DNA of 64,000 nt, from NCBI GenBank assembly GCA_048887225.1, contig JBHLJY010000004.1, forward strand, positions 160,001 through 224,000. Reading direction: 5' to 3'. This DNA is from Candidatus Hodarchaeota archaeon. GTDB lineage: Archaea; Asgardarchaeota; Lokiarchaeia; Sigyniarchaeales; SOKP01. The position numbers were made by a program, and so were the translations under genes. Positions 1,282 through 57,753 of the stretch are shown here, one piece after another. Position 1 is the stretch's first letter; each line of letters starts with the position of its first letter. Below the pieces are notes generated by a model. That model was not told the DNA's origin. It was given only the letters and a program-made list of their open reading frames with translations, and did no database searches.

Positions 1282-2391
1282 ATTAGTCTAAACAAAGAAA
1301 TTGAAAAAATGTTAATTGAGCGTGGAGCAATAAGAGTTGGATTTGCAACGCTTGAAACCATGGCTGGAGGACCGCCTGGAGCCGATATTACTTATTTACT
1401 TCCAGAAGCTCAATCCGCAATTGGGTTTGCAATTCCCATGGATAAGGATTTAATTCGTCCTCATTTAGGAAAAGAACTTCCAAATGGTCGTGCCGATCAC
1501 GAGGAGGACAACATCGCTACTAATATTAGAGCATGGCATCTAGCTAAAGATATTAGAGATTTTTTAATTAAAAAGGATTATAAAGCAATAAGTGTTATTC
1601 CTAATAACCATTATAGAGAAGATTATCCTGGATGGCAAGCATCATTGCCTCCCGAACTTTCATTAAGATATCTCGCTGTCCGTTCTGGAATTGCTTCTTT
1701 TGGTTGGTCGGGTAATGTTGGAATAAAAGGTTATGGTACACCTATAATTTTAGGGGGAATAGTTACTGACGCCAAATTACAGCCAACTGATCCACTTCCT
1801 CCCGAAGAATCGTTTTGTAACAAATGTAAACTCTGTACTAAAGTGTGTGGCTTTCAAATGTTTTCTGACAATGAAGAAACCTCCATTACTCTCGGTGGAT
1901 ATACTTTTAAATACGCAAAAAGGATTAATAAACTAAGATGTGTACTTGTATGTGGGGGGTGTACTGGGTTACACAAATCAGGAAAATTTTCGACCTGGAG
2001 TCCTGGTCGATATGATTATCCAGAAGATAAGTTTGAAGTATCCCGTCTTATGACTCTTGCCATGACAGCTCAGAAAAAAAGGCCAATAATTAAAGATCAT
2101 TCGAAGGGATATGTTCCAGCATCTTATGGCGGGAAGGGAGTAGTACAGCTCACCTGCGGAAATTGCCAGCTAATTTGTTGGGGTGATCCTAAGGAAACTG
2201 CAAAGAATTATAAGATACTGGTTAACTCTGGATGCGTAATCCAGAAAGAGGATGGAGAGCTCATCGTCCTCCCTCCTGAAAAAGCTAAAATTGAATTTGA
2301 AAAAATGGCTCCAAAACGCAAGCGTTTGTATTATAAGGATTACAAGAAAAGTGTAAGGAGAAAAGCAGAAATTGTGCAATTGATGCCTTAA
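1282..2391 (+). CDS. Epoxyqueuosine reductase/reductive dehalogenase-like cobalamin 4Fe-4S protein (probable ATT start at 1282; first ATG at 1309)
   Basis: LSLRYLAVRSGIASFGWSG, IVTDAKLQPTDP, CNKCKLCTKVC and CGNCQLIC motifs. SD-like AGGTGA at 1269-1274 precedes the ATT. Confidence 0.75.
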   Translation: MSLNKEIEKMLIERGAIRVGFATLETMAGGPPGADITYLLPEAQSAIGFAIPMDKDLIRPHLGKELPNGRADHEEDNIATNIRAWHLAKDIRDFLIKKDYKAISVIPNNHYREDYPGWQASLPPELSLRYLAVRSGIASFGWSGNVGIKGYGTPIILGGIVTDAKLQPTDPLPPEESFCNKCKLCTKVCGFQMFSDNEETSITLGGYTFKYAKRINKLRCVLVCGGCTGLHKSGKFSTWSPGRYDYPEDKFEVSRLMTLAMTAQKKRPIIKDHSKGYVPASYGGKGVVQLTCGNCQLICWGDPKETAKNYKILVNSGCVIQKEDGELIVLPPEKAKIEFEKMAPKRKRLYYKDYKKSVRRKAEIVQLMP

Positions 2392-3600: not shown

Positions 3601-4407
3601 TTATATTGGTGGTTTATCTTCCTCTTGTTTAATTAGCCCTAATAAGTAAGGAATTGCTAAGAAAGGCATATAAATGAGAGCAATCTCAACTAAAGCATTA
3701 TAAAAGATTACCATAAACTCTATAATTGGAGGTGCTCTTCGCAAATTAGAATAGGTTCCGTCGGGATTTTTTGTACCAATTTCGACCCATCTTTGACCTG
3801 ATAACCAATATAGAAGATACCATATGCACCCTAAAACAAACATTACTAAAAACATATATAATCCTCTTTTTCTAGATTCTTTATCTGTTTTCATTATCCA
3901 GTATATGGCAGGAGAAACAAGTGGAATTATTAGCAATTCCCAGATAGGAAAAACTTCTCTTCGAGATGGTACATCCCCTCCAACATTAGGAATATAAATT
4001 CCATGACTAAACATTACTAAAGTTATCGCAACTACAACAATCGCTAATGTAATTAAGCTATAAATTCTTGTTTCTTTAACTATATACAAATCAGTTATAA
4101 ACAAGCCGATAATACCAACAGTTACCCCTTCAGATAAACCTTGTAAGGGAATTGAAAGCCACAAAGGAATTTTCATTCCAAAAAGATATCGATTCGGCAT
4201 ATCTCGAATTCCCGTAAGTTGTAGTGCTAATTCAACTGAGCTCCAAAAAATAAAACCTGTTAAAAAAACCCAAAAATAATCTTTCCTCTCTTTCCATTTC
4301 CAATCTGTAATACAAATGCATACTGCGGCAATCGCAAATAATAATTTGAAATCCCATTCTTCACCCCAAAAACCGCCCCTTGTGATAAATATACTTTCAA
4401 ATAGCAT
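3601..4407 (-). CDS. Hypothetical multi-pass membrane protein
   Basis: About 7 hydrophobic segments in 268 aa. Confidence 0.7.
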   Translation of the reverse strand: MLFESIFITRGGFWGEEWDFKLLFAIAAVCICITDWKWKERKDYFWVFLTGFIFWSSVELALQLTGIRDMPNRYLFGMKIPLWLSIPLQGLSEGVTVGIIGLFITDLYIVKETRIYSLITLAIVVVAITLVMFSHGIYIPNVGGDVPSRREVFPIWELLIIPLVSPAIYWIMKTDKESRKRGLYMFLVMFVLGCIWYLLYWLSGQRWVEIGTKNPDGTYSNLRRAPPIIEFMVIFYNALVEIALIYMPFLAIPYLLGLIKQEEDKPPI

Positions 4408-4479
4408 TTTTATTATTATTTTATAGTTAATTTATAAAAACATTGGATATTTATATAGTAATTAATAAAAATTTATTGG

Positions 4480-5403
4480 ATGAAGATAATGACGAAGAAT
4501 CAGAATTTAACAAGGGATGTTAAGGAATTTTTGCTTGAAAAAGGAGCGGATCGTGTGGGAATTGCCTCAATTTCCCGATTTGCTGAATGTCCTGAGGAAA
4601 CACATCCTCAACACTATATACCTGATGCTACTTGTGTTATCTCCTATGGAATTAAAATTATTGATGAAATATGCGATATTTGGGGGGAACATAATCAATC
4701 TCATAAAAGTGCAGCTCCATATCTATATTATGGGTATGGATTAGTAAATTGGGAACTTTCTCGGATAGGACACCTTACAGCAAAACGGATTTTAGAATTT
4801 CATGGTTATAAAGCTCTTATGTTTCCTCCAACCTTCGTTTTAGGGCAATATAGATTTCTTCATAGAATTGTGGAAGAAGATCCTATTTTTTTAGCAGATT
4901 TTTCCCATCGTCACGCAGCGGTGGCAGCTGGTCTTGGTGAATTTGGATTGAGTGGATTAGTTTTAGTACCAAAGTATGGTTCTCGAATACGTTTTAATTC
5001 AATTATAACCAATGCACCATTGGTGGCAGATCCGATGTATAACGGACCAAAATTGTGCCAACCTGAAAAATGCAATCATAAATGTGTATGTGATTGTCCA
5101 ACGGAAGCGTTGACTCTCGATGAGACCTTCACAGTGAAAATTGGTGAAAATTTATATAAATATTGTAAAGCAGAAAAAATGCGATGTAATATGGCTGTTT
5201 TTGGCTTAGTGGGAGGCACAGGTGCTAGAACGAGGAGAAAATTACCCAAACGAGCAAAAAAGAAAATCACGATTGATGATTTCTTTAAAGCACGCCAAAG
5301 GCAGAATGCATTTGATAAATTTTTCATAAATGAACGTCCTCTCGTAATGGGGGATTTTTGTGGAAAATGCCTTCATGGCTGTATTTCCCACAAATTATTA
5401 TGA
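4480..5403 (+). CDS. Epoxyqueuosine reductase/reductive dehalogenase-like cobalamin 4Fe-4S protein
   Basis: GADRVGIA, FSHRHAAVAAGLGEFGLSG, YGSRIRFNSIITNAPL, C..CNHKCVCDCP and CGKCLHGC motifs. Confidence 0.8.
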   Translation: MKIMTKNQNLTRDVKEFLLEKGADRVGIASISRFAECPEETHPQHYIPDATCVISYGIKIIDEICDIWGEHNQSHKSAAPYLYYGYGLVNWELSRIGHLTAKRILEFHGYKALMFPPTFVLGQYRFLHRIVEEDPIFLADFSHRHAAVAAGLGEFGLSGLVLVPKYGSRIRFNSIITNAPLVADPMYNGPKLCQPEKCNHKCVCDCPTEALTLDETFTVKIGENLYKYCKAEKMRCNMAVFGLVGGTGARTRRKLPKRAKKKITIDDFFKARQRQNAFDKFFINERPLVMGDFCGKCLHGCISHKLL

Positions 5404-5516
5404 TTAAACTTAATTAAATCTGAAAATTAGAGAAAAATTTCCCAAAAATTATTATTGTATTGAACAATATAGTTCAATTATAATTTTATTTATAAATTAT
5501 TTAATTAAAGAAATAC

Positions 5517-6707
5517 ATGTCAGATTACTATTCCAAATTAGTTGAATTAGAGAAGTACCATCATACTAAGTTATTTCCAAAACGAGATTACGTCATAACA
5601 AAAGGAAAAGGTGCCCTTCTTTATGACGAGAAGGGAAACGAATATATTGACTGTATTGGGGGGCATGGTGTATTGAATATAGGTCATAGCCATCCAAAAT
5701 ATATTGAGGCTATGAAACAACAACTTGAAAAGATAGCAATGATACCCCCAGGATTTCCAGTAGAAGAGAGAGCTAAGTTACTCCAAAAATTAGCAGATAT
5801 CACTCCAAAAAATCTAACGCAAACTTTTCTCTCAAATAGCGGTACTGAATCAGTTGAAGCAGCTATTAAATTAGTATTAGCTAATAATAGAGAAAAAAAA
5901 ACCCCAGAGGTTATAGCCTTTAAAAGAGGTTTTCATGGTCGAACGTTAGGTTCTTTATCAATGACGCATAATATGAAGTACAGAAAAGCTTTCTTATCTT
6001 GGTTATCCCCTTACATTAAATACGCATCATATGGCAATATTGATTCTGTAAAAGAATCAGTTAACGAAAATACTGTGGCAATATTCTGTGAATTAATTCA
6101 AGGTGAAGGAGGAGTACATCCCGCTCCAGAAGATTTTCCTAAGGAATTGAGAGAGTTATGTTATGAAAAAGATTTAATTTTAGTTGATGACGAGGTGCAG
6201 ACTGGATTTGGAAGAACCGGGAAAATGTTTGCTTTTGAACATTATAGTATTATTCCAGATGTTATATGTATGGCTAAAGCTCTTGCGGGGGGATTACCAA
6301 TTGGAGCAACCATAGCTTCCGAAGACTTATATAATAAATTTGATATCGGAGAACATAATACGACTTTTGGTGGAAATCCTTTAGTATGTGCAGCTGCAAA
6401 TGCAACATTAAATATAATAAGAGAAGAAAATCTTATAGATAACGCAGCCAAACAAGGAAAGAAAATAATATCTGATATTAGTGAATTTTCAAAAGAGTGT
6501 GAGATTATTAGAGATGTAAGGGGCAAAGGATTAATAATTGGAGTTGAGTATAGGAAAAAAGTTAAAGATTTAATTAAAGATGCTGAAAATAAGCGGGTAT
6601 TGTTTTTGAATGCAGGTCTGACAGTAATTCGACTTCTTCCACCACTTGTTATTACCGATAGCCAAGTAGAAAAAGTAATAGAAGTTATTCATAAAATTTC
6701 AGAGTAA
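5517..6707 (+). CDS. Class III PLP aminotransferase, ArgD/LysJ-like
   Basis: NSGTESVEAAIK, FHGRTLG, ELIQGEGG, DEVQTGFGRTG, MAKALAGG and TTFGGNP motifs. Confidence 0.9.
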   Translation: MSDYYSKLVELEKYHHTKLFPKRDYVITKGKGALLYDEKGNEYIDCIGGHGVLNIGHSHPKYIEAMKQQLEKIAMIPPGFPVEERAKLLQKLADITPKNLTQTFLSNSGTESVEAAIKLVLANNREKKTPEVIAFKRGFHGRTLGSLSMTHNMKYRKAFLSWLSPYIKYASYGNIDSVKESVNENTVAIFCELIQGEGGVHPAPEDFPKELRELCYEKDLILVDDEVQTGFGRTGKMFAFEHYSIIPDVICMAKALAGGLPIGATIASEDLYNKFDIGEHNTTFGGNPLVCAAANATLNIIREENLIDNAAKQGKKIISDISEFSKECEIIRDVRGKGLIIGVEYRKKVKDLIKDAENKRVLFLNAGLTVIRLLPPLVITDSQVEKVIEVIHKISE

Positions 6708-6754
6708 TCTGTAGGATATATTAATTTTAGAGTTAATACTAAGGTGTTTTAAAA

Positions 6755-7624
6755 ATTACCTCAGTAAGCGAAAAAGAATTTTTAAATAAACTCTTAGAAG
6801 TAGTCGCCAAACTCTCAAGTATAGCAAGAGCCCAAGGATCTCGTTTTGAAAAATTATGGGACGATTATTTAAAACCTATTAACGAAAATCCTCACAAAAT
6901 CCGTAATATACCTCTAGACAAAAAGAAATTTATTGAAGACATCAATTATAGAATTGGTATTCTGAAAATCGTAGAACAGTCTATGGTTGACGGATTTTAT
7001 TGCATTAAATCTCTATTAGAAACATTATACAATTCATATTTGAATGATTCAGAATTATTTAATAAGGATTTTAAAAAAGAAGATCAATTAATCCTCAAAT
7101 ATATGATAGCTAGAGAAATTTTAGGAAATCTAGTTCAGTATAATAGAATGGAACATGAAACTGTTCCAATAAAATACAATATTATGGCACGAAATTACTT
7201 ATTATTAAAACTTCAAGGACAAAAAGATACTGAAATTCTTGAAAACATGAAAAAATTAAACATCGATATTGATTTGGCAAATATACAAAATATCATGAAT
7301 GAGATTGAAGTAGAGGGTCTAATAAGTAAATCACTAGAAGGTGAAAATTATTATTATAGTTTAAGGAAAGAATTAGAATTAAGCGAAGATGGTACAGAGC
7401 AATATGATCTTCACTTATATCCTTTAATTGCTTGGCCCACGCAATTTTGGAGAAGTTATTATAATATCAGGGAATTAAACGTTACTATAGACGAAAATAT
7501 TAAGTATCGTGATTTCCTTCATAAAGTTTTGTCCAAATCAGCTACTCAAGGATTCGGTTCTGCTAATTTTGTGTTTAAAAATTTAGTGAAGTATTACGAA
7601 AAGATTAAGGAAGAGGGGACTTAG
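6755..7624 (+). CDS. Hypothetical protein, possibly with a winged helix (probable ATT start at 6755; ORF track starts at 6983)
   Basis: Frame is open from the stop at 6740-6742. SD-like AAGGTG (6741-6746) precedes ATT at 6755. The 76 upstream codons look protein-like. Confidence 0.65.
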   Translation: MTSVSEKEFLNKLLEVVAKLSSIARAQGSRFEKLWDDYLKPINENPHKIRNIPLDKKKFIEDINYRIGILKIVEQSMVDGFYCIKSLLETLYNSYLNDSELFNKDFKKEDQLILKYMIAREILGNLVQYNRMEHETVPIKYNIMARNYLLLKLQGQKDTEILENMKKLNIDIDLANIQNIMNEIEVEGLISKSLEGENYYYSLRKELELSEDGTEQYDLHLYPLIAWPTQFWRSYYNIRELNVTIDENIKYRDFLHKVLSKSATQGFGSANFVFKNLVKYYEKIKEEGT

Positions 7625-8526
7625 AACTCCTTTGTCTTTTTTAATGGAATGTCGAATTCTTCTAATAAAGGAATAAGATGCTGTTTATCAGCAGAGTTAG
7701 TGCCTTTCCAGTCGATAATAAAGCAATCAATGGATTCTAAATTATTAGATATCATCATCTGAATCATTTCTTTATTTAACTCTTGAATATAATACTTAGG
7801 GCAGATAAATGATACTGCTACGTTTTTAAGAGTTATGAGTTTTCTGAATTGAGGGGCATAATGAGTACCGCCAAAACCAATACCAATCTCGGGGAACTTT
7901 CTCTTTTGTGCCTCGGTATATTCTAAGCATGTTTGAAGAATCGCATGAGCTACCACTTGACCTGCTTTTTCAATCTCCCATTCTGCCTCATGACTCCCTA
8001 ACTCCATAAATATTAATGGTTTTTCTAAAGTTGTTGGACCATGATGAGTTACTTCGATATCTAAGGAAAAATCTGTCATTTCTTTAACGTAAATCTGCTC
8101 TTGTAAGGATATATAAGAAGCTTTTAGTAAAATAGCACTTGTTTTACATAATTCGTAAGGATTTCCTCCAAAATCTGCATTGGCTCCCCAGTTTCCCGTT
8201 GTATGAGTCAAAAAAGCGGGTCTGGCAGCTTCAGACCGATGACGACTGGCAAAAATTAGTAAATCAGGGTTAATTATTGTGTCTTCTAACTTTAAATCAT
8301 TGAATTGGATTAAAGGATCATCAGTTAAGCCAATAAATATTTGATTTTCAGAGAAAAAAGGATTCCAATCCCTTTTGGAGATAACTATTTCTAATTCCAA
8401 TAATGGATGTTCATGCCATTTTGTACCGACTTCCTTGAACTTAAAAAGATTATCTCCTATAAAATTTTCTCGAATATTCATAGAGGCCTTGTCTTCAGTA
8501 GAAGTTATTATTAAAAATTGTGTCAA
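7621..8526 (-). CDS. dtdA: Archaeal D-aminoacyl-tRNA deacylase
   Basis: FASRHRS, THTTGN, EVTHHGPT, FMELGS and GFGGTHYAPQF motifs. Confidence 0.9.
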   Translation of the reverse strand: MTQFLIITSTEDKASMNIRENFIGDNLFKFKEVGTKWHEHPLLELEIVISKRDWNPFFSENQIFIGLTDDPLIQFNDLKLEDTIINPDLLIFASRHRSEAARPAFLTHTTGNWGANADFGGNPYELCKTSAILLKASYISLQEQIYVKEMTDFSLDIEVTHHGPTTLEKPLIFMELGSHEAEWEIEKAGQVVAHAILQTCLEYTEAQKRKFPEIGIGFGGTHYAPQFRKLITLKNVAVSFICPKYYIQELNKEMIQMMISNNLESIDCFIIDWKGTNSADKQHLIPLLEEFDIPLKKTKEF

Positions 8527-8760
8527 ATATACGTCACCGAAAACTTGTATTTCTTTAATTAAATAATTTCTCTTCTAATACACAAAAAAGATATATACCT
8601 TACAATTATTATCCTCATTTTAAAAATTTTTACAAGTTTAATATAAATTTAAAAAACAATATTTTTATATAATATTAAAAAATAAAGCCCTAATTTTTTT
8701 TAAAAGTATTCTATAAAAAGATTCTTTTAAACAGAATTAAATAGATTAAAGGAGAAATAA

Positions 8761-13053: not shown

Positions 13054-14736
13054 TTAAGAAAGCAAATTAGTGGGCGGTTGAAGACCTTTAAACAAGGAAA
13101 GGGTATACATAATTTCTTCTGAGCCCTCAATTAACCTCCTTAAGTTATAAGGAAAGTTTTGAAACTCAACCTTTCTGCCCTCGTAGACCCAATCTATGAT
13201 CATTTTTATCATTTCTTTATATTTTTTGATCGTATTACCTTCTGAATCTATTTCCGATATGATTTTCCACGCTTTTTTTAATTTCCCATTAAGAATAAGG
13301 GATAAAGAGGCTAATACGTAAGAATGGACTATATGTGAATAGCCGATTTTTTTCAAATTTGCTGCTCGATAATAATATCTATAAACAGACCTTACAGCTT
13401 GCCTTAAAAAATAATCTTGTGCAATATCTAATTGCTCATAAAATTTTATGCTTTCTAGAAGGAGTGTAGCTGCTGTGTAAAATTGCTTATTTTTTATACC
13501 TTCTTTGGCGATTTTCTTTAATCCACTGATAATTTGGTTAAATATTCCATATCGGTTAAATTCTAAGTTTCCTTCAACTGCTATATCATAAGCATTTAAA
13601 TACCATTCGGTAGATTGATAAAAATCCCCAATTTTCCAAAAATTATCTCCTGCTTTGATGCAATGCTTATAAGACATTTCAAAATTGTTTAAATCCTGAA
13701 ATATATCCGCCGCATCAAGAAAATTTATTGCTGCTTGAGAATAATCTTCATCCTTTTCAATATAATTTCCAGCTAAAATAAAGCAAGAAGCAGATTCAAT
13801 TAGGTTATCAGTACTTTCTTTATAACACAAACCAGCAGCACGGTAATATCTAGCTATTTTCTGAAAATTTTCTGCATTTTTTTCTAAACTCTCTGCTAAA
13901 TTAATATATGCCCCTGCCTCCTTTCTTGAATAATTAAGATATTGTTCCTCATCGTCTAAGGTCTTATAGAGATTTTTTAATATTTGACATATTTGAGCTA
14001 ATTCTAAGTTTTCGTTCTTTTCTTCAAATTCATGAAATAAATTTGAGAAAAAATCTATTCCATCTAAAACAATATTTTTAGATGTATTATAATCGTCTAA
14101 TTCTTCGAAGCAAAGAGCAATTTGTTGATAAGAAAACGATAAAATATCATAATACTTATAAATTTTTGCGATCTCGATTACATCCTGGTAAGATTTAGTA
14201 GCTTTTTTAAAATTAGACGCCTTTACGTATAATTCGGCTATATTTTGATAATTTTGAGTTAGTTTTCTCGTTTCAACGTTACTCCCATTGTTAAAGCCCT
14301 TCAAAAGTTTGTTTTCTTGCTCCAAATATTTAATACTTTTTAAAATATTATCTTTTTTTGATTTATCGTCTTGAAATTTTTCACCATAGATCTCAGCGAT
14401 TTTTAAATAAATTTCAGCAATTTCGTGTAATTTAGCTTGAATAGTAAAATTCTCAATTAATTTTTCCCATAACTTTATGTTATGCTTATATAATTCAAGG
14501 GCATATGAAAAATCAAGATCCTCTAAAATTTCAGCTGCAGAATAAATAAATTCTCCTGCTTCCCAAATTTCTCCTGATTCGGCAAGCTCGTTTGAAAACC
14601 TAATTGATATTTTAACAATTAGTTGAATTGAATTTTTCTTTTTATTTTTATCGATGATTTTTTGTACATATCCTACAGAATCTCTTAGTCTCTCTAAAAA
14701 ATCTGTGTAATCACTGTAATCCTCTTCTTCAAGAAT
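13054..14736 (-). CDS. TPR/alpha-SNAP-like helical repeat protein (probable ATT start at 14736; ORF track starts at 14325)
   Basis: Repeated A..Y/F..AA/AG helical motifs. Frame stays open for 137 codons upstream of the TTG, nearly back to a TGA. Confidence 0.6.
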   Translation of the reverse strand: MLEEEDYSDYTDFLERLRDSVGYVQKIIDKNKKKNSIQLIVKISIRFSNELAESGEIWEAGEFIYSAAEILEDLDFSYALELYKHNIKLWEKLIENFTIQAKLHEIAEIYLKIAEIYGEKFQDDKSKKDNILKSIKYLEQENKLLKGFNNGSNVETRKLTQNYQNIAELYVKASNFKKATKSYQDVIEIAKIYKYYDILSFSYQQIALCFEELDDYNTSKNIVLDGIDFFSNLFHEFEEKNENLELAQICQILKNLYKTLDDEEQYLNYSRKEAGAYINLAESLEKNAENFQKIARYYRAAGLCYKESTDNLIESASCFILAGNYIEKDEDYSQAAINFLDAADIFQDLNNFEMSYKHCIKAGDNFWKIGDFYQSTEWYLNAYDIAVEGNLEFNRYGIFNQIISGLKKIAKEGIKNKQFYTAATLLLESIKFYEQLDIAQDYFLRQAVRSVYRYYYRAANLKKIGYSHIVHSYVLASLSLILNGKLKKAWKIISEIDSEGNTIKKYKEMIKMIIDWVYEGRKVEFQNFPYNLRRLIEGSEEIMYTLSLFKGLQPPTNLLS

Positions 14737-34977: not shown

Positions 34978-35487
34978 TTATTTAATGTTAAATATCTCTA
35001 AAAATCTCCCAAATTCTTTCTTTATATCAATTATTGGTAAATTTATATCGATTTTTTCTTTTTTACGAGCATTTTGAGAACAAATCAGTCCAGAAATCAT
35101 CCTAACATTTTTTGTTAGTTGAGGTTTTATTTCTTCAAAATTCTTTAAGCATAGTATAGTAGGATAATTTAAATTCCTAAAACCTTCTATAAAAATTAGA
35201 TCAATCTTGTAAGGACCACTTGTAATCCATTCCAGTAATTCCTTTATACTAATTTCCTTTCTTAAAAAAATTGTAGTTTCATTTTTCACATTTTTAGTTA
35301 TAGAAAATTGCGCTCCAGCTTTCCCATATTTAAATGAATCCTTATCTTCTTTATCAATTTGATGTTCGTGAATGTTTTTAACTATAGCTACCTCGTAATT
35401 CAAATTCTTTTTTAATAATTTTATGGCATTCAAAATAAAATGCGTTTTGCCGCTTCCAGAATATCCAATCAAACAAATTATTTTAAT
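34978..35487 (-). CDS. mobB: Molybdopterin-guanine dinucleotide biosynthesis protein B (probable ATT start at 35487)
   Basis: (M)KIICLIGYSGSGKT, AIVKNIH, DKEDKDS and DLIFIEGFR motifs. Confidence 0.85.
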   Translation of the reverse strand: MKIICLIGYSGSGKTHFILNAIKLLKKNLNYEVAIVKNIHEHQIDKEDKDSFKYGKAGAQFSITKNVKNETTIFLRKEISIKELLEWITSGPYKIDLIFIEGFRNLNYPTILCLKNFEEIKPQLTKNVRMISGLICSQNARKKEKIDINLPIIDIKKEFGRFLEIFNIK

Positions 35488-37693: not shown

Positions 37694-37966
37694 TTAAGTT
37701 TTACGTAATTGTTTATCACGTTGAGCAATTTGATGGCGATGTATTGCACAACTTATACAATAATATTTCTTAGTCGAGCCCCCCATAATTATAGTTCCTG
37801 CCTTTTTTAATTCTCCGTACATCCGAGCATCGACTAGATTTGTTCGTCGAGTAACAACTTTCGCTTTACTTCTAGCAACAAATCGTCCGCAATTTACACA
37901 TTGTACCTTTCCATAATTACCTTTGCTACTACCAGTTTTTCCTCCCGATTTACGTTTTTTCGGAAT
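37694..37966 (-). CDS. rps26e: Ribosomal protein S26e (ATT start; absent from the ORF track)
   Basis: (M)PKKRKSGG...VQCVNCGRFVARSKA...YYCISCAIHRH. AGGAGGT SD lies 7 nt upstream of the ATT. Confidence 0.95.
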   Translation of the reverse strand: MPKKRKSGGKTGSSKGNYGKVQCVNCGRFVARSKAKVVTRRTNLVDARMYGELKKAGTIIMGGSTKKYYCISCAIHRHQIAQRDKQLRKT

Positions 37967-38101
37967 AAGATTAACCTCCTTTTTTCTATTTTTCTCTCTT
38001 CTAGTAATTAAATAATTAAAAATTTAAATAAGTTATTCTTAGCTGTAGATTTTTAAGAAGACTTTTCAAATCAAGTGTATAAGATATTGAATTTAATTAT
38101 T

Positions 38102-50435: not shown

Positions 50436-51233
50436 TTGGAAGCAATTTTACCATTTAGACACGAAAACGAGAAAACATTCTTGAATGAAGTTCATCCTTT
50501 AGTTAGAATGATTTTACCCTTTATTTTTATAATTCCATTTCTCCTAATCGATAATGTTTACCAGATATATATATTTATCATAATTACATTTTTCTTCAGT
50601 CTGATCGTACATTTACCTCTTTTGAGAATTCTTTCAAGACTCAAAAATATTATTCCTTTTATATTTTTTATTACCATTTTTATACCTTTTTATGTAGGAG
50701 AAACTATAATTCTTAAAATTGAAATCGGAATTACTATTAATATTTATAAGGAAGGCTTAACTCGAGCACTTTTATTATTTATGAGAATTTTTGGAGCTAC
50801 GTATATTTTCATGTCATTTTTCTCTTCTTTAACGTATTCAGAGTTTATTGAAGCTCTAACAATGATGAGACTTCCTTCATTTTTAGTTGGTAGTTTCATT
50901 ATAATGCTTCATTATATTCCGATTATAGTTAGTTCAAATAAAAAAATACTGGAGGCTCAAGAACTCCGTGGAAAAAAAATTACAAATTATTGGGAAAAGT
51001 TAAAAGCTCATGGCTACGTAATGGGAAAGAGTCTTGTATCAAATATGGAACGTAGCGAAAAGCTGTACGAAAGTTTAAAAATGCGAGGATTTACAGGTAA
51101 ACTAACTCTTGCTCCGAGGAATATTAAAATAATTGATATAATGTTGTTAGTTCTCTTTCTCGTACTTACTATATATTTCATTTATTTTTTCAATTTGGAT
51201 ATGTTTTATAAGGAGGTTTTAGCACAATTTTAG
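50436..51233 (+). CDS. cbiQ: ECF transmembrane component CbiQ/NikQ
   Basis: AQELRG and SLKMRGF arginine motifs; TM segments. Confidence 0.88.
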   Translation: MEAILPFRHENEKTFLNEVHPLVRMILPFIFIIPFLLIDNVYQIYIFIIITFFFSLIVHLPLLRILSRLKNIIPFIFFITIFIPFYVGETIILKIEIGITINIYKEGLTRALLLFMRIFGATYIFMSFFSSLTYSEFIEALTMMRLPSFLVGSFIIMLHYIPIIVSSNKKILEAQELRGKKITNYWEKLKAHGYVMGKSLVSNMERSEKLYESLKMRGFTGKLTLAPRNIKIIDIMLLVLFLVLTIYFIYFFNLDMFYKEVLAQF

Positions 51234-51976
51234 CTGTAGAAGTTGAAGATTTGAATTTTAATTATAAAAATGGTTTTAGTATTCAGAATTTATCGTTAAA
51301 AATAGAAAAAAATTCAATTTATGCCTTAACGGGTAATAATGGTTCAGGTAAAACAACTTTATTGAGGTTGTTGGTTGGTTTATTAAAACCAAAATCGGGA
51401 ACAATCAAGATTTTTGATGAAGTTCTTACGAGAAATAAAATGCAACTATGGAAGATTAGGCAAAAAATTGGATTTTTATTTCAGAATCCAGATGATCAAT
51501 TATTTGCTCCAACTATAGAAGAAGATGTGGGTTTCGGAGCAAGGAATTTAAAACTAGAGCAAAGCGAAGTAAAAAAACGTGTAGAATGGGCTCTAAAAGC
51601 AGTTAATTTATTAGATTTTAAAGAATTTTCACCCTTTAATTTATCTTGGGGACAAAAAAAACGAGCTTCATTAGCCGGCTTATTAGTAATGAGACCAAAA
51701 CTTTTAATTTTAGATGAGCCATTTGCTAATCTTGATTTTAAATCAATTTACAGCCATCTTGGAATTTTTGAAAAATTAAGGAAAGAAGAGAGGATGACAA
51801 TTTTATTCACATCTCATAATTTATTTTTTGTGGAGAATTGGGCGGATAAGATGCTCGTATTAAATGGCGGTAAATCAATATTTGAAGGCAATCCGAAAAA
51901 AGGACTAGATCATCCCAAAGTTAAGAAAATAATGGGATCATACGACGAGATTAGTGAATTAATTAAAAAGAAATGA
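51227..51976 (+). CDS. cbiO: ECF ATPase CbiO/NikO (probable ATT start at 51227; ORF track TTG at 51251)
   Basis: GNNGSGKTT, FQNPDDQLF, LSWGQKKR and LDEP motifs; AGGAGG at 51211-51216. Confidence 0.9.
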   Translation: MLAVEVEDLNFNYKNGFSIQNLSLKIEKNSIYALTGNNGSGKTTLLRLLVGLLKPKSGTIKIFDEVLTRNKMQLWKIRQKIGFLFQNPDDQLFAPTIEEDVGFGARNLKLEQSEVKKRVEWALKAVNLLDFKEFSPFNLSWGQKKRASLAGLLVMRPKLLILDEPFANLDFKSIYSHLGIFEKLRKEERMTILFTSHNLFFVENWADKMLVLNGGKSIFEGNPKKGLDHPKVKKIMGSYDEISELIKKK

Positions 51977-56781: not shown

Positions 56782-57753
56782 TTATCTTTTTTTTAACGAA
56801 ATTCCTAGGTTAAGATTTTCAAATAATTCGCTAAATCTATTTCTAATTGTAACTTCTGTAACCTGTGAAATTTTAGCAATTTTTCTTTGAGTTCTTCTTT
56901 CTTTACATAATATTGAAGCCGCATATATGGCAGCTGCGCAAACTCCAGTTGGACCTCTCCCAGAAGTTAAACCACGTAGTTCTGCTATTTTTATTATTTT
57001 TTTGGATTTTTTATGGCACTGTTGAGATAAACCTAATTCACTTATAAAGCGTATGAGGAAATCCAAAGGTTTAGTAGGATTCAAATTTAATTTTAATTCT
57101 TTTGAAATAAATCTAAAAGACCGACCAATTTCTTTTTTATTGACGCGTGCAACTTCCGCAATTTCATTTAATGTTCTAGGTACATGGAACATTCTACAAG
57201 CTGCATATAAGCTTGCTGCAGCGACCCCTTCAATAGATCTTCCACGAATTAAATGTGCTTCTACTGCATCTCTGTATATTTTTGCTGAGCATTCTCGTAA
57301 ATTCTTTTGAAGATCTAAATTTGAAGCCATACGATCTAATTCACTTAAGGCGAACGTTAAATTTCTTTCAGTTGCATCAGATACTCTAATACGGCTCTGC
57401 CATTTTCGGAGCCGATAAATTTGTGCTCTTAATTTAGCGGGTATTTCCTTTCCGAAGATATCACGATTTTTCCAGTCAATCATTGTACTTAGACCTTTAT
57501 CGTGTATCATGTATGTCATTGGTGCTCCTGTTCTTGTTCTCTTCTTTTTCTGATCAGCATCAAATGCTCGCCATTCTGGCCCGTGATCAATCCATTTCTC
57601 GGATTTTATTAACCCACATTGTTCACATACCATGAAACCTCTATTTCCATCATAAGAGATAGTATTGCCACATTCTGAACAATGTTTTGATGATAATCCA
57701 TCATCATCATGTTTTTCTTCATGTAAAGTCTTAACTTCTTTCCAACTTGAAAT
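56782..57753 (-). CDS. tfb: Transcription initiation factor IIB (probable ATT start at 57753)
   Basis: Complete Zn ribbon CSECG...CEQCG only with the upstream extension; GPEWRAF, HDKGLST and two cyclin repeats. Confidence 0.95.

Follow-up and report, generated by a model that had tools for sequence, protein, structure and literature searches.

Near-cognate start codons placed behind Shine-Dalgarno (SD) sequences were found in many genes of a Lokiarchaeia genome and its relatives, most clearly in the gene for ribosomal protein S26e. The window (i.e., the whole stretch of 64,000 nucleotides that was analyzed) lies on contig C4 of a 3.27-Mb MAG (98% complete, ~30% GC). Comparison with orthologues demonstrated, at the level of DNA, that the affected genes are intact, that they carry ATT, ATA, ATC, or ACG behind an SD where orthologues have ATG, and that they are under purifying selection upstream of the first NTG codon. 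That near-cognate initiation is real we regard as very likely, a judgment made without ribosome profiling, proteomics, or reads. The best overall explanation, which we hold with fairly good confidence, is SD-positioned near-cognate initiation at low stringency, probably accompanied by infC-like feedback through the initiation factor aIF1. The feedback part by itself is an inference, no feedback having been measured, and we favor it only slightly.

The S26e gene is present in a single copy in the whole genome and starts with ATT (37966 to 37964, minus strand), its first codons being ATT CCG AAA AAA CGT. Three features define the start.

37694..37966, minus strand: rps26e (eS26) coding sequence, 90 amino acids, with an ATT start at 37966, supported by a model match and by the codon 1 tally
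37974..37980 (37980 to 37974), minus strand: Shine-Dalgarno sequence AGGAGGT of S26e, with a 7-nt spacer to ATT
38024..38026, minus strand: in-frame TAA that bounds the S26e reading frame, 19 codons ahead of ATT

An earlier interpretation made without database searches (the sequence-only reading) had placed the MPKKR N terminus of S26e at this ATT, 7 nt behind AGGAGGT, with no ATG, GTG, or TTG option, and the coordinates bear this out. None of the three codons occurs among the 19 codons between TAA and ATT, and the first ATG in the frame is Met49, from which only a 42-amino-acid stub without the N-terminal Cys pair would be made. The in-frame stop, said in that reading to be just upstream, is 19 codons away. 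The NCBIfam model matches S26e starting at residue 1, and AGGAGGT pairs with the genome's own 16S tail, a standard archaeal anti-SD (duplex energy, -11.2 kcal/mol). Counts of synonymous and nonsynonymous differences from relatives over codons 2 to 48 (7/2, 20/3, 28/3, and 26/3) indicate purifying selection. A search for structured RNA elements at the starts of S26e and aIF1 revealed none (z scores of 0.4 and 0.5, respectively).

The first codon of S26e was tallied from aligned N termini in Promethearchaeia (Lokiarchaeia) genomes; here and in all start codon counts below, related genomes are nonindependent samples. Among 70 scorable related species, codon 1 was ATT in 38, ATG in 15, TTG in 9, ATA in 3, ATC in 2, and CTG, GTG, and GTT in 1 each. 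This column holds start-like codons only, the pattern that marks a translation start. Codon 1 was near-cognate in 45 of the 70 species (~64%), and 43 of these 45 lacked an upstream in-frame NTG; ACG was found in one further genome outside the tally. The start state changed at least eight times on the S26e tree, with four of the switches forced by well-supported branches. SD-like duplexes preceded 91% of the near-cognate starts, compared with 53% of the ATG starts. In the cultured Lokiarchaeum ossiferum, which belongs to the same order and a different family, S26e begins at ATT three codons past a stop, and the MK-D1 gene starts at ATG.

Two further features of S26e were observed among the relatives. 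A 29-nt frame-breaking insert, absent from the genome of the window, is located past approximately codon 32 in three other species, with congeners among the carriers (L180:3096-3125, L182 ~1055-1084, and L184 ~2342-2371; split matches in G007 and G008). Deleting it restores full-length S26e. Its ends resemble a bulge-helix-bulge motif (exon TGCA versus intron-end TGTA), and its stem sequence varies among species with pairing kept, which makes the insert a candidate for an intron of the tRNA type within a protein-coding mRNA; a similar shape was recovered by minimum-energy folding for just one of the three. Separately, a conserved GCTGAT replaces GGTGAT 6 to 12 nt upstream of S26e in several genera (L129-L148 and others). 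This element has one mismatch to the anti-SD, and one carrier genome (L247) has a standard 16S tail.

Seven other near-cognate starts in the window had been proposed in the sequence-only reading, and they differ in how firmly they can be placed.

56782..57753, minus strand: tfb (TFIIB), ATT at 57753, the second codon past a stop; forced
13054..14736, minus strand: TPR/SNAP-like protein, ATT at 14736; forced
6755..7624, plus strand: conserved 289-amino-acid hypothetical protein, ATT at 6755; forced
46439..48130, minus strand: acyl-CoA ligase, ATA at 48130; strong, from the neighboring paralogue
51227..51976, plus strand: ECF/cbiO ATPase, ATT at 51227 behind AGGAGGT; probable, with a model match from residue 3 or 4
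34978..35487, minus strand: mobB, ATT at 35487; probable, with a model match from residues 1 to 3
1282..2391, plus strand: QueG-like protein, ATT at 1282 or 1279 behind AAGGTGA; probable

Along with S26e, the first three starts are forced. The first NTG of tfb is codon 42, beyond the Cys pair of the Zn ribbon, and the ATT is also found in two congeners; for the gene at 14736, the first NTG is codon 142, and two congeners have an in-register ATT. The first NTG of the 6755 gene is codon 81. Among its 120 best homologues, 113 are 280 to 299 amino acids long, and the inspected ones start with M-T in register, whereas the database gene call on its own contig is 213 rather than ~289 amino acids. This length difference is direct evidence that the database version is truncated. 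The ATA at 48130 is fixed by the adjoining paralogue, whose TTG (46235) is in register with it; a GTG sits three codons upstream of this ATA but within the SD. The remaining three starts are only probable, because canonical codons follow closely: TTG is 8 codons past ATT in cbiO and 5 codons past it in mobB, and ATG is 9 codons past ATT 1282 in the QueG-like gene. The downstream codons of mobB and cbiO would cut into the family model, and the cbiO ATT is retained in two congeners. A possible ninth site, unnoticed in the sequence-only reading and without a homologue check, is the frame at 7621 to 8559 (minus strand), where no NTG precedes the TTG of codon 17 and an ATT at ~8559 gives a more typical N terminus.

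An artefact, or another route to a canonical start, would require assembly errors, pseudogenes, ATA read as Met, or splicing or frameshifting that brings in an ATG. It draws some support from the restriction of the data to MAGs and from the congeners carrying the 29-nt insert, which raise the possibility of mRNA splicing in the genus. However, the same state was found in 45 independently assembled species, and a contig from a separate assembly matches positions 3838 to 8026 at 100% identity, including ATT 6755 (S26e is not covered, and the sample is possibly shared). The affected genes are single copy and under purifying selection, and no ATG was found on the coding strand of the intergenic region preceding S26e. 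Internal ATA, ATT, and ATC codons align to Ile in 66 to 79% of cases and to Met in at most 2.9% (for ATA alone, 66 to 72% and 2 to 3%), and internal ACG aligns to Thr. Since internal ATH stays Ile, the code is not reassigned, and recoding of ATA as Met was rejected. We regard this explanation as largely refuted and assign it a very small residual probability.

Near-cognate initiation extends well beyond the window. In a homology-free test set of long open reading frames that have an SD and whose first 25 codons contain no NTG, ATH filled 24 of 58 in-frame codons located 5 to 10 nt behind the SD versus 32 of 230 elsewhere (Fisher's exact test, P = 1e-5), and the control codons (Leu, AAA/AAT, and TTT/TAT) were not enriched. 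A near-cognate codon lay at this distance in 24 of 30 such genes, compared with 7 to 10 when shifted windows were used. After correction for background, ATH made up 16% (SD of ≥5 nt) to 22% (≥6 nt) of the SD-led starts of the genome; this genome-wide percentage is a rough mixture estimate. The corresponding share was 0.4 to 0.7% in ribosomal protein regions of Methanococcaceae of similar GC content, approximately 0 in those of other Asgard archaea, and low but uncertain in L. ossiferum B35 and MK-D1. A start finder based on expectation maximization with free priors (ATG, 52%; TTG, 9%) also returned spurious AAA and AAT; it was too noisy to confirm the share and was not used.

These control regions favor ATG, and the like-for-like comparison is a count of forced non-NTG starts over 19 genes of the ribosomal protein cluster with one pooled anchor. 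(Without pooling, anchors fell in conserved SD sequence and gave a false 20% in Methanococcaceae.) Forced starts were found in 18 of 446 genes (~4%) in the genome's own family, 0/354 in Methanococcaceae, 0/94 in the family of the cultured strains, 0/51 in two other families of the class, 0/86 in one further Asgard family, and 5/338 in the remaining Asgard archaea. The genome's own cluster has such starts in 4 of 20 genes, where relatives have ATG: uL14 (ATC), uL22 (ATT), uS14 (ATA), and a membrane gene (ACG). This cluster (G000 C4, L110) begins at uS19 and lacks uL3, uL4, uL23, uL2, and aIF1. Pairwise homology set a floor of ~5% of genes (21/320, of which about four are spurious open reading frames). 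That count was restricted to genes whose first NTG is at least 10 codons into the core; conserved untranslated regions inflate the forced test when the congener is very close, and conditioning on the relative's ATG undercounts. About 30 forced candidates were listed in the genome, among them uS10-like and V-ATPase-D-like genes named by sequence resemblance only. Near-cognate starts are used by at least dozens of genes per genome, and probably by well over a hundred.

The proportion noted in the window by the sequence-only reading, 8 of ~60 genes, falls within the range from ~5% to 16 to 22%. Its codon set of ATT and ATA proved too narrow: both occur, together with ATC, ACG, and, in relatives, CTG and GTT. 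Its inference that start codon selection is relaxed in this lineage holds insofar as near-cognate starts are frequent here and below 1% in the low-GC Methanococcaceae control. It holds only in part, since ATG dominates and ribosomal proteins mostly start with ATG; ATH looks like a weak start that is used selectively.

Inspection of the initiation factors and the initiator tRNA, which the same reading had suggested, showed all to look normal. The factors aIF1, aIF1A, and aIF2 alpha, beta, and gamma and KsgA are all present with open frames, so that loss of aIF1 or other initiation factors was rejected. Loop 1 of aIF1 remains basic, uS9 keeps its terminal Arg tail, and the initiator tRNA has a CAU anticodon, A1-U72, three G-C pairs, and a 48-nt intron. 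No altered initiator tRNA, missing KsgA, or altered uS9 tail, and no other lesion explaining low stringency, was found in the factors, KsgA, the uS9 tail, the initiator tRNA, or the 3' end of the 16S rRNA (the only part available, at a contig edge). The intron of the initiator tRNA gene (G000 C34 11007-11133) lies on or close to the 3' side of the anticodon loop; ARAGORN without its intron mode misses the gene. The aIF2-gamma gene (G000 C5, ~8378-8629, minus strand; 540-codon frame) encodes an N-terminal extension of ~110 residues before the G domain, helix-hairpin-helix-like by eye, which may be a trait of the initiation machinery specific to this lineage.

Alternatively, a wobble modification of the initiator tRNA, comparable to mitochondrial f5C34, might read AUH as nearly cognate without any general loss of proofreading. 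The dominance of ATH among non-NTG starts agrees with this idea, but ACG, CTG, and GTT mismatch at positions 1 and 2, and the tRNA gene is ordinary (modifications being invisible in DNA); we judge it improbable. Animal mitochondria have f5C and read AUA as Met. The genome studied here does not use AUA as Met in elongation. Mitochondria likewise use AUA and AUU as routine starts (PMC11775629), but their mRNAs are leaderless, whereas the starts described here are SD led and ATA stays Ile.

Low-stringency initiation behind an SD has a candidate cause in the gene for aIF1 itself, located outside the window on contig C26. It starts at ATC (21418); an in-frame TGA lies three codons before this ATC, and no NTG precedes the Zn knuckle. 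Of 30 genomes from the class, 16 lack an NTG before the knuckle and just 5 carry ATG. At 98 other archaeal loci, mostly from methanogens and Thermoplasmatota (other Asgard classes and TACK archaea were not included), aIF1 starts with ATG in 97 and GTG in 1. Within the family, its start is near-cognate in 12 of 15 genomes versus 18 of 446 ribosomal protein genes; in two sister families, it is forced in 3 of 5 genomes, compared with 0 of 51 ribosomal protein starts. Autoregulation of the infC/eIF1 type predicts a suboptimal start on the factor's own gene and conservation above background, and both were observed. The weak start is not shared by all, since L. ossiferum has ATG and MK-D1 has TTG, and the four other initiation factors start with ATG. 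The aIF1 proteins of the genome's own family and that of the cultured strains (L031-L060 alignment) have CASGG versus CACGG in other archaea and, in helix 1, K-A-K for K-L-K, with no correlation to ATH frequency.

In the mechanism that we propose, the SD:anti-SD duplex would position the near-cognate codon in the P site, where the ordinary Met-tRNAi(CAU) would pair with one mismatch, and proofreading by aIF1 of this family would be lenient enough to let it pass. A normal Met N terminus would result at lowered efficiency, and ATH would form a fourth, weak class of start codon (~5 to 20% of genes in the genome). Because the aIF1 gene starts with ATC, ATT, or ATA across the class, we infer that aIF1 probably limits its own synthesis like IF3, which would hold stringency at the low level that S26e, tfb, and other genes need. 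In Sulfolobus solfataricus, aIF1 rejects AUU and blocks AUU complexes in vitro (PMC4705826), and IF3 and eIF1 restrict their own synthesis via weak starts (PMC4705826, PMC6237735). Two points count against this explanation: no lesion of the initiation machinery accounts for the low stringency, and AUU infC in bacteria coexists with very few AUU genes, so that feedback does not by itself predict a high share of ATH.

Near-neutral drift would need no regulation: under permissive initiation, AT-biased mutation would turn ATG into ATA or ATT in genes whose strong SD and modest need for expression permitted it. A GC content of 30%, the free variation of the codon between close species (ATT, ATA, ATC, TTG, and ATG), and the unrelated functions of many affected genes are all consistent with drift. 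It does not account well for the concentration of near-cognate starts in the initiation-related aIF1 (12/15) and S26e (~64%) versus ~4% forced starts in other ribosomal proteins, nor for their retention by aIF1 in families whose ribosomal proteins show none. As a full account we consider drift less likely than feedback-associated low stringency, but for most genes beyond aIF1 and S26e it is a live rival.

In the mRNA exit channel of S. solfataricus, bound eS26 is incompatible with an SD duplex, and the protein competes with mRNAs that are SD led (PMC11698992). Weak starts are most concentrated in the genes for aIF1 and S26e, which would then encode proteins that oppose their own initiation, again an inference. 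A speculative extension, which we think may well be wrong, is an initiation stringency circuit in which aIF1 represses itself via AUH and eS26 represses itself via SD-dependent AUU, the two jointly tuning near-cognate genes including that for TFB. If true, the circuit would be an archaeal counterpart of infC/eIF1 feedback in the phylum closest to eukaryotes, and the conserved near-cognate start of aIF1 is already a candidate for feedback standing between control by IF3 in bacteria and control by eIF1 in eukaryotes. The literature searched contained no case of start codon fidelity under feedback control in archaea.

Besides infC, Escherichia coli pcnB is a rare gene with an AUU start. Enterococcus faecalis ebpA is a further rare case (PMC4447247). 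Bacterial infC resembles the genes described here in its SD-led AUU and in the weak start on a fidelity factor's own gene (PMC4705826), but the factor here is aIF1 rather than IF3, the codons include AUU, AUA, AUC, and ACG, and many genes rather than a handful are affected. AUU starts in model prokaryotes are limited to few genes per genome, which does not apply here (at least ~5% by homology). In eukaryotes, the orthologous factor eIF1 is autoregulated through a suboptimal start site of its own (PMC4705826, PMC6237735), although its weakness is a poor AUG (Kozak) context under scanning rather than the codon behind an SD. GUG and UUG starts in archaea show that a first-position mismatch is tolerated despite aIF1 (PMC7531240, PMC4705826); reviews list only AUG, GUG, and UUG, whereas this family routinely uses second- and third-position mismatches. 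Kariarchaeaceae atubA is an Asgard gene with an ATT start behind a ribosome-binding site that was truncated in GenBank, but it was reported as a rare one-off from another class, without a survey (PMC13394414). A systematic description of near-cognate starts in Asgard archaea was not found in the literature searched, with most subscription papers outside its scope. Near-cognate initiation in this lineage works like infC-type AUU initiation, differs from it in scale and codon range, and is a real lineage-level feature.

These starts have consequences for annotation. NCBI table 11 permits ATH as alternative starts. The prediction of the sequence-only reading that standard callers would truncate or miss such genes was correct for the 6755 gene (213 amino acids) but not for every caller, as homology-guided NCBI annotation rescues some: MBY8989128.1 is a full 90-amino-acid S26e on a contig with the ATT-start gene. 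Elsewhere, NCBI picks upstream S26e codons, giving forms of 93 to 111 amino acids. In the largest Lokiarchaeia family, a measurable fraction of proteins, products of core translation and transcription genes among them, is shortened or lost when genes are called ab initio, and missed starts affect studies of gene content, eukaryotic signatures, and structures. SD sequences have been stated to be rare in Lokiarchaea (PMC12993045, PMC7531240). Missed near-cognate starts may contribute to this statement, which we offer only as a suggestion; the statement rests on MK-D1, where sampled ATH use looks low. Given that S26e of the cultured L. ossiferum has an ATT start, proteomes that already exist offer a check of the basic claim. 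Database titles were also inconsistent with S26e phylogeny in places: genes nested among Lokiarchaeia were found in records titled Nanopelagicaceae, Odin-, Thor-, Hod-, or Hermodarchaeota (L160 [DATKTW010000174.1], L138, L143, and L183), which are probably mislabeled or misbinned assemblies.
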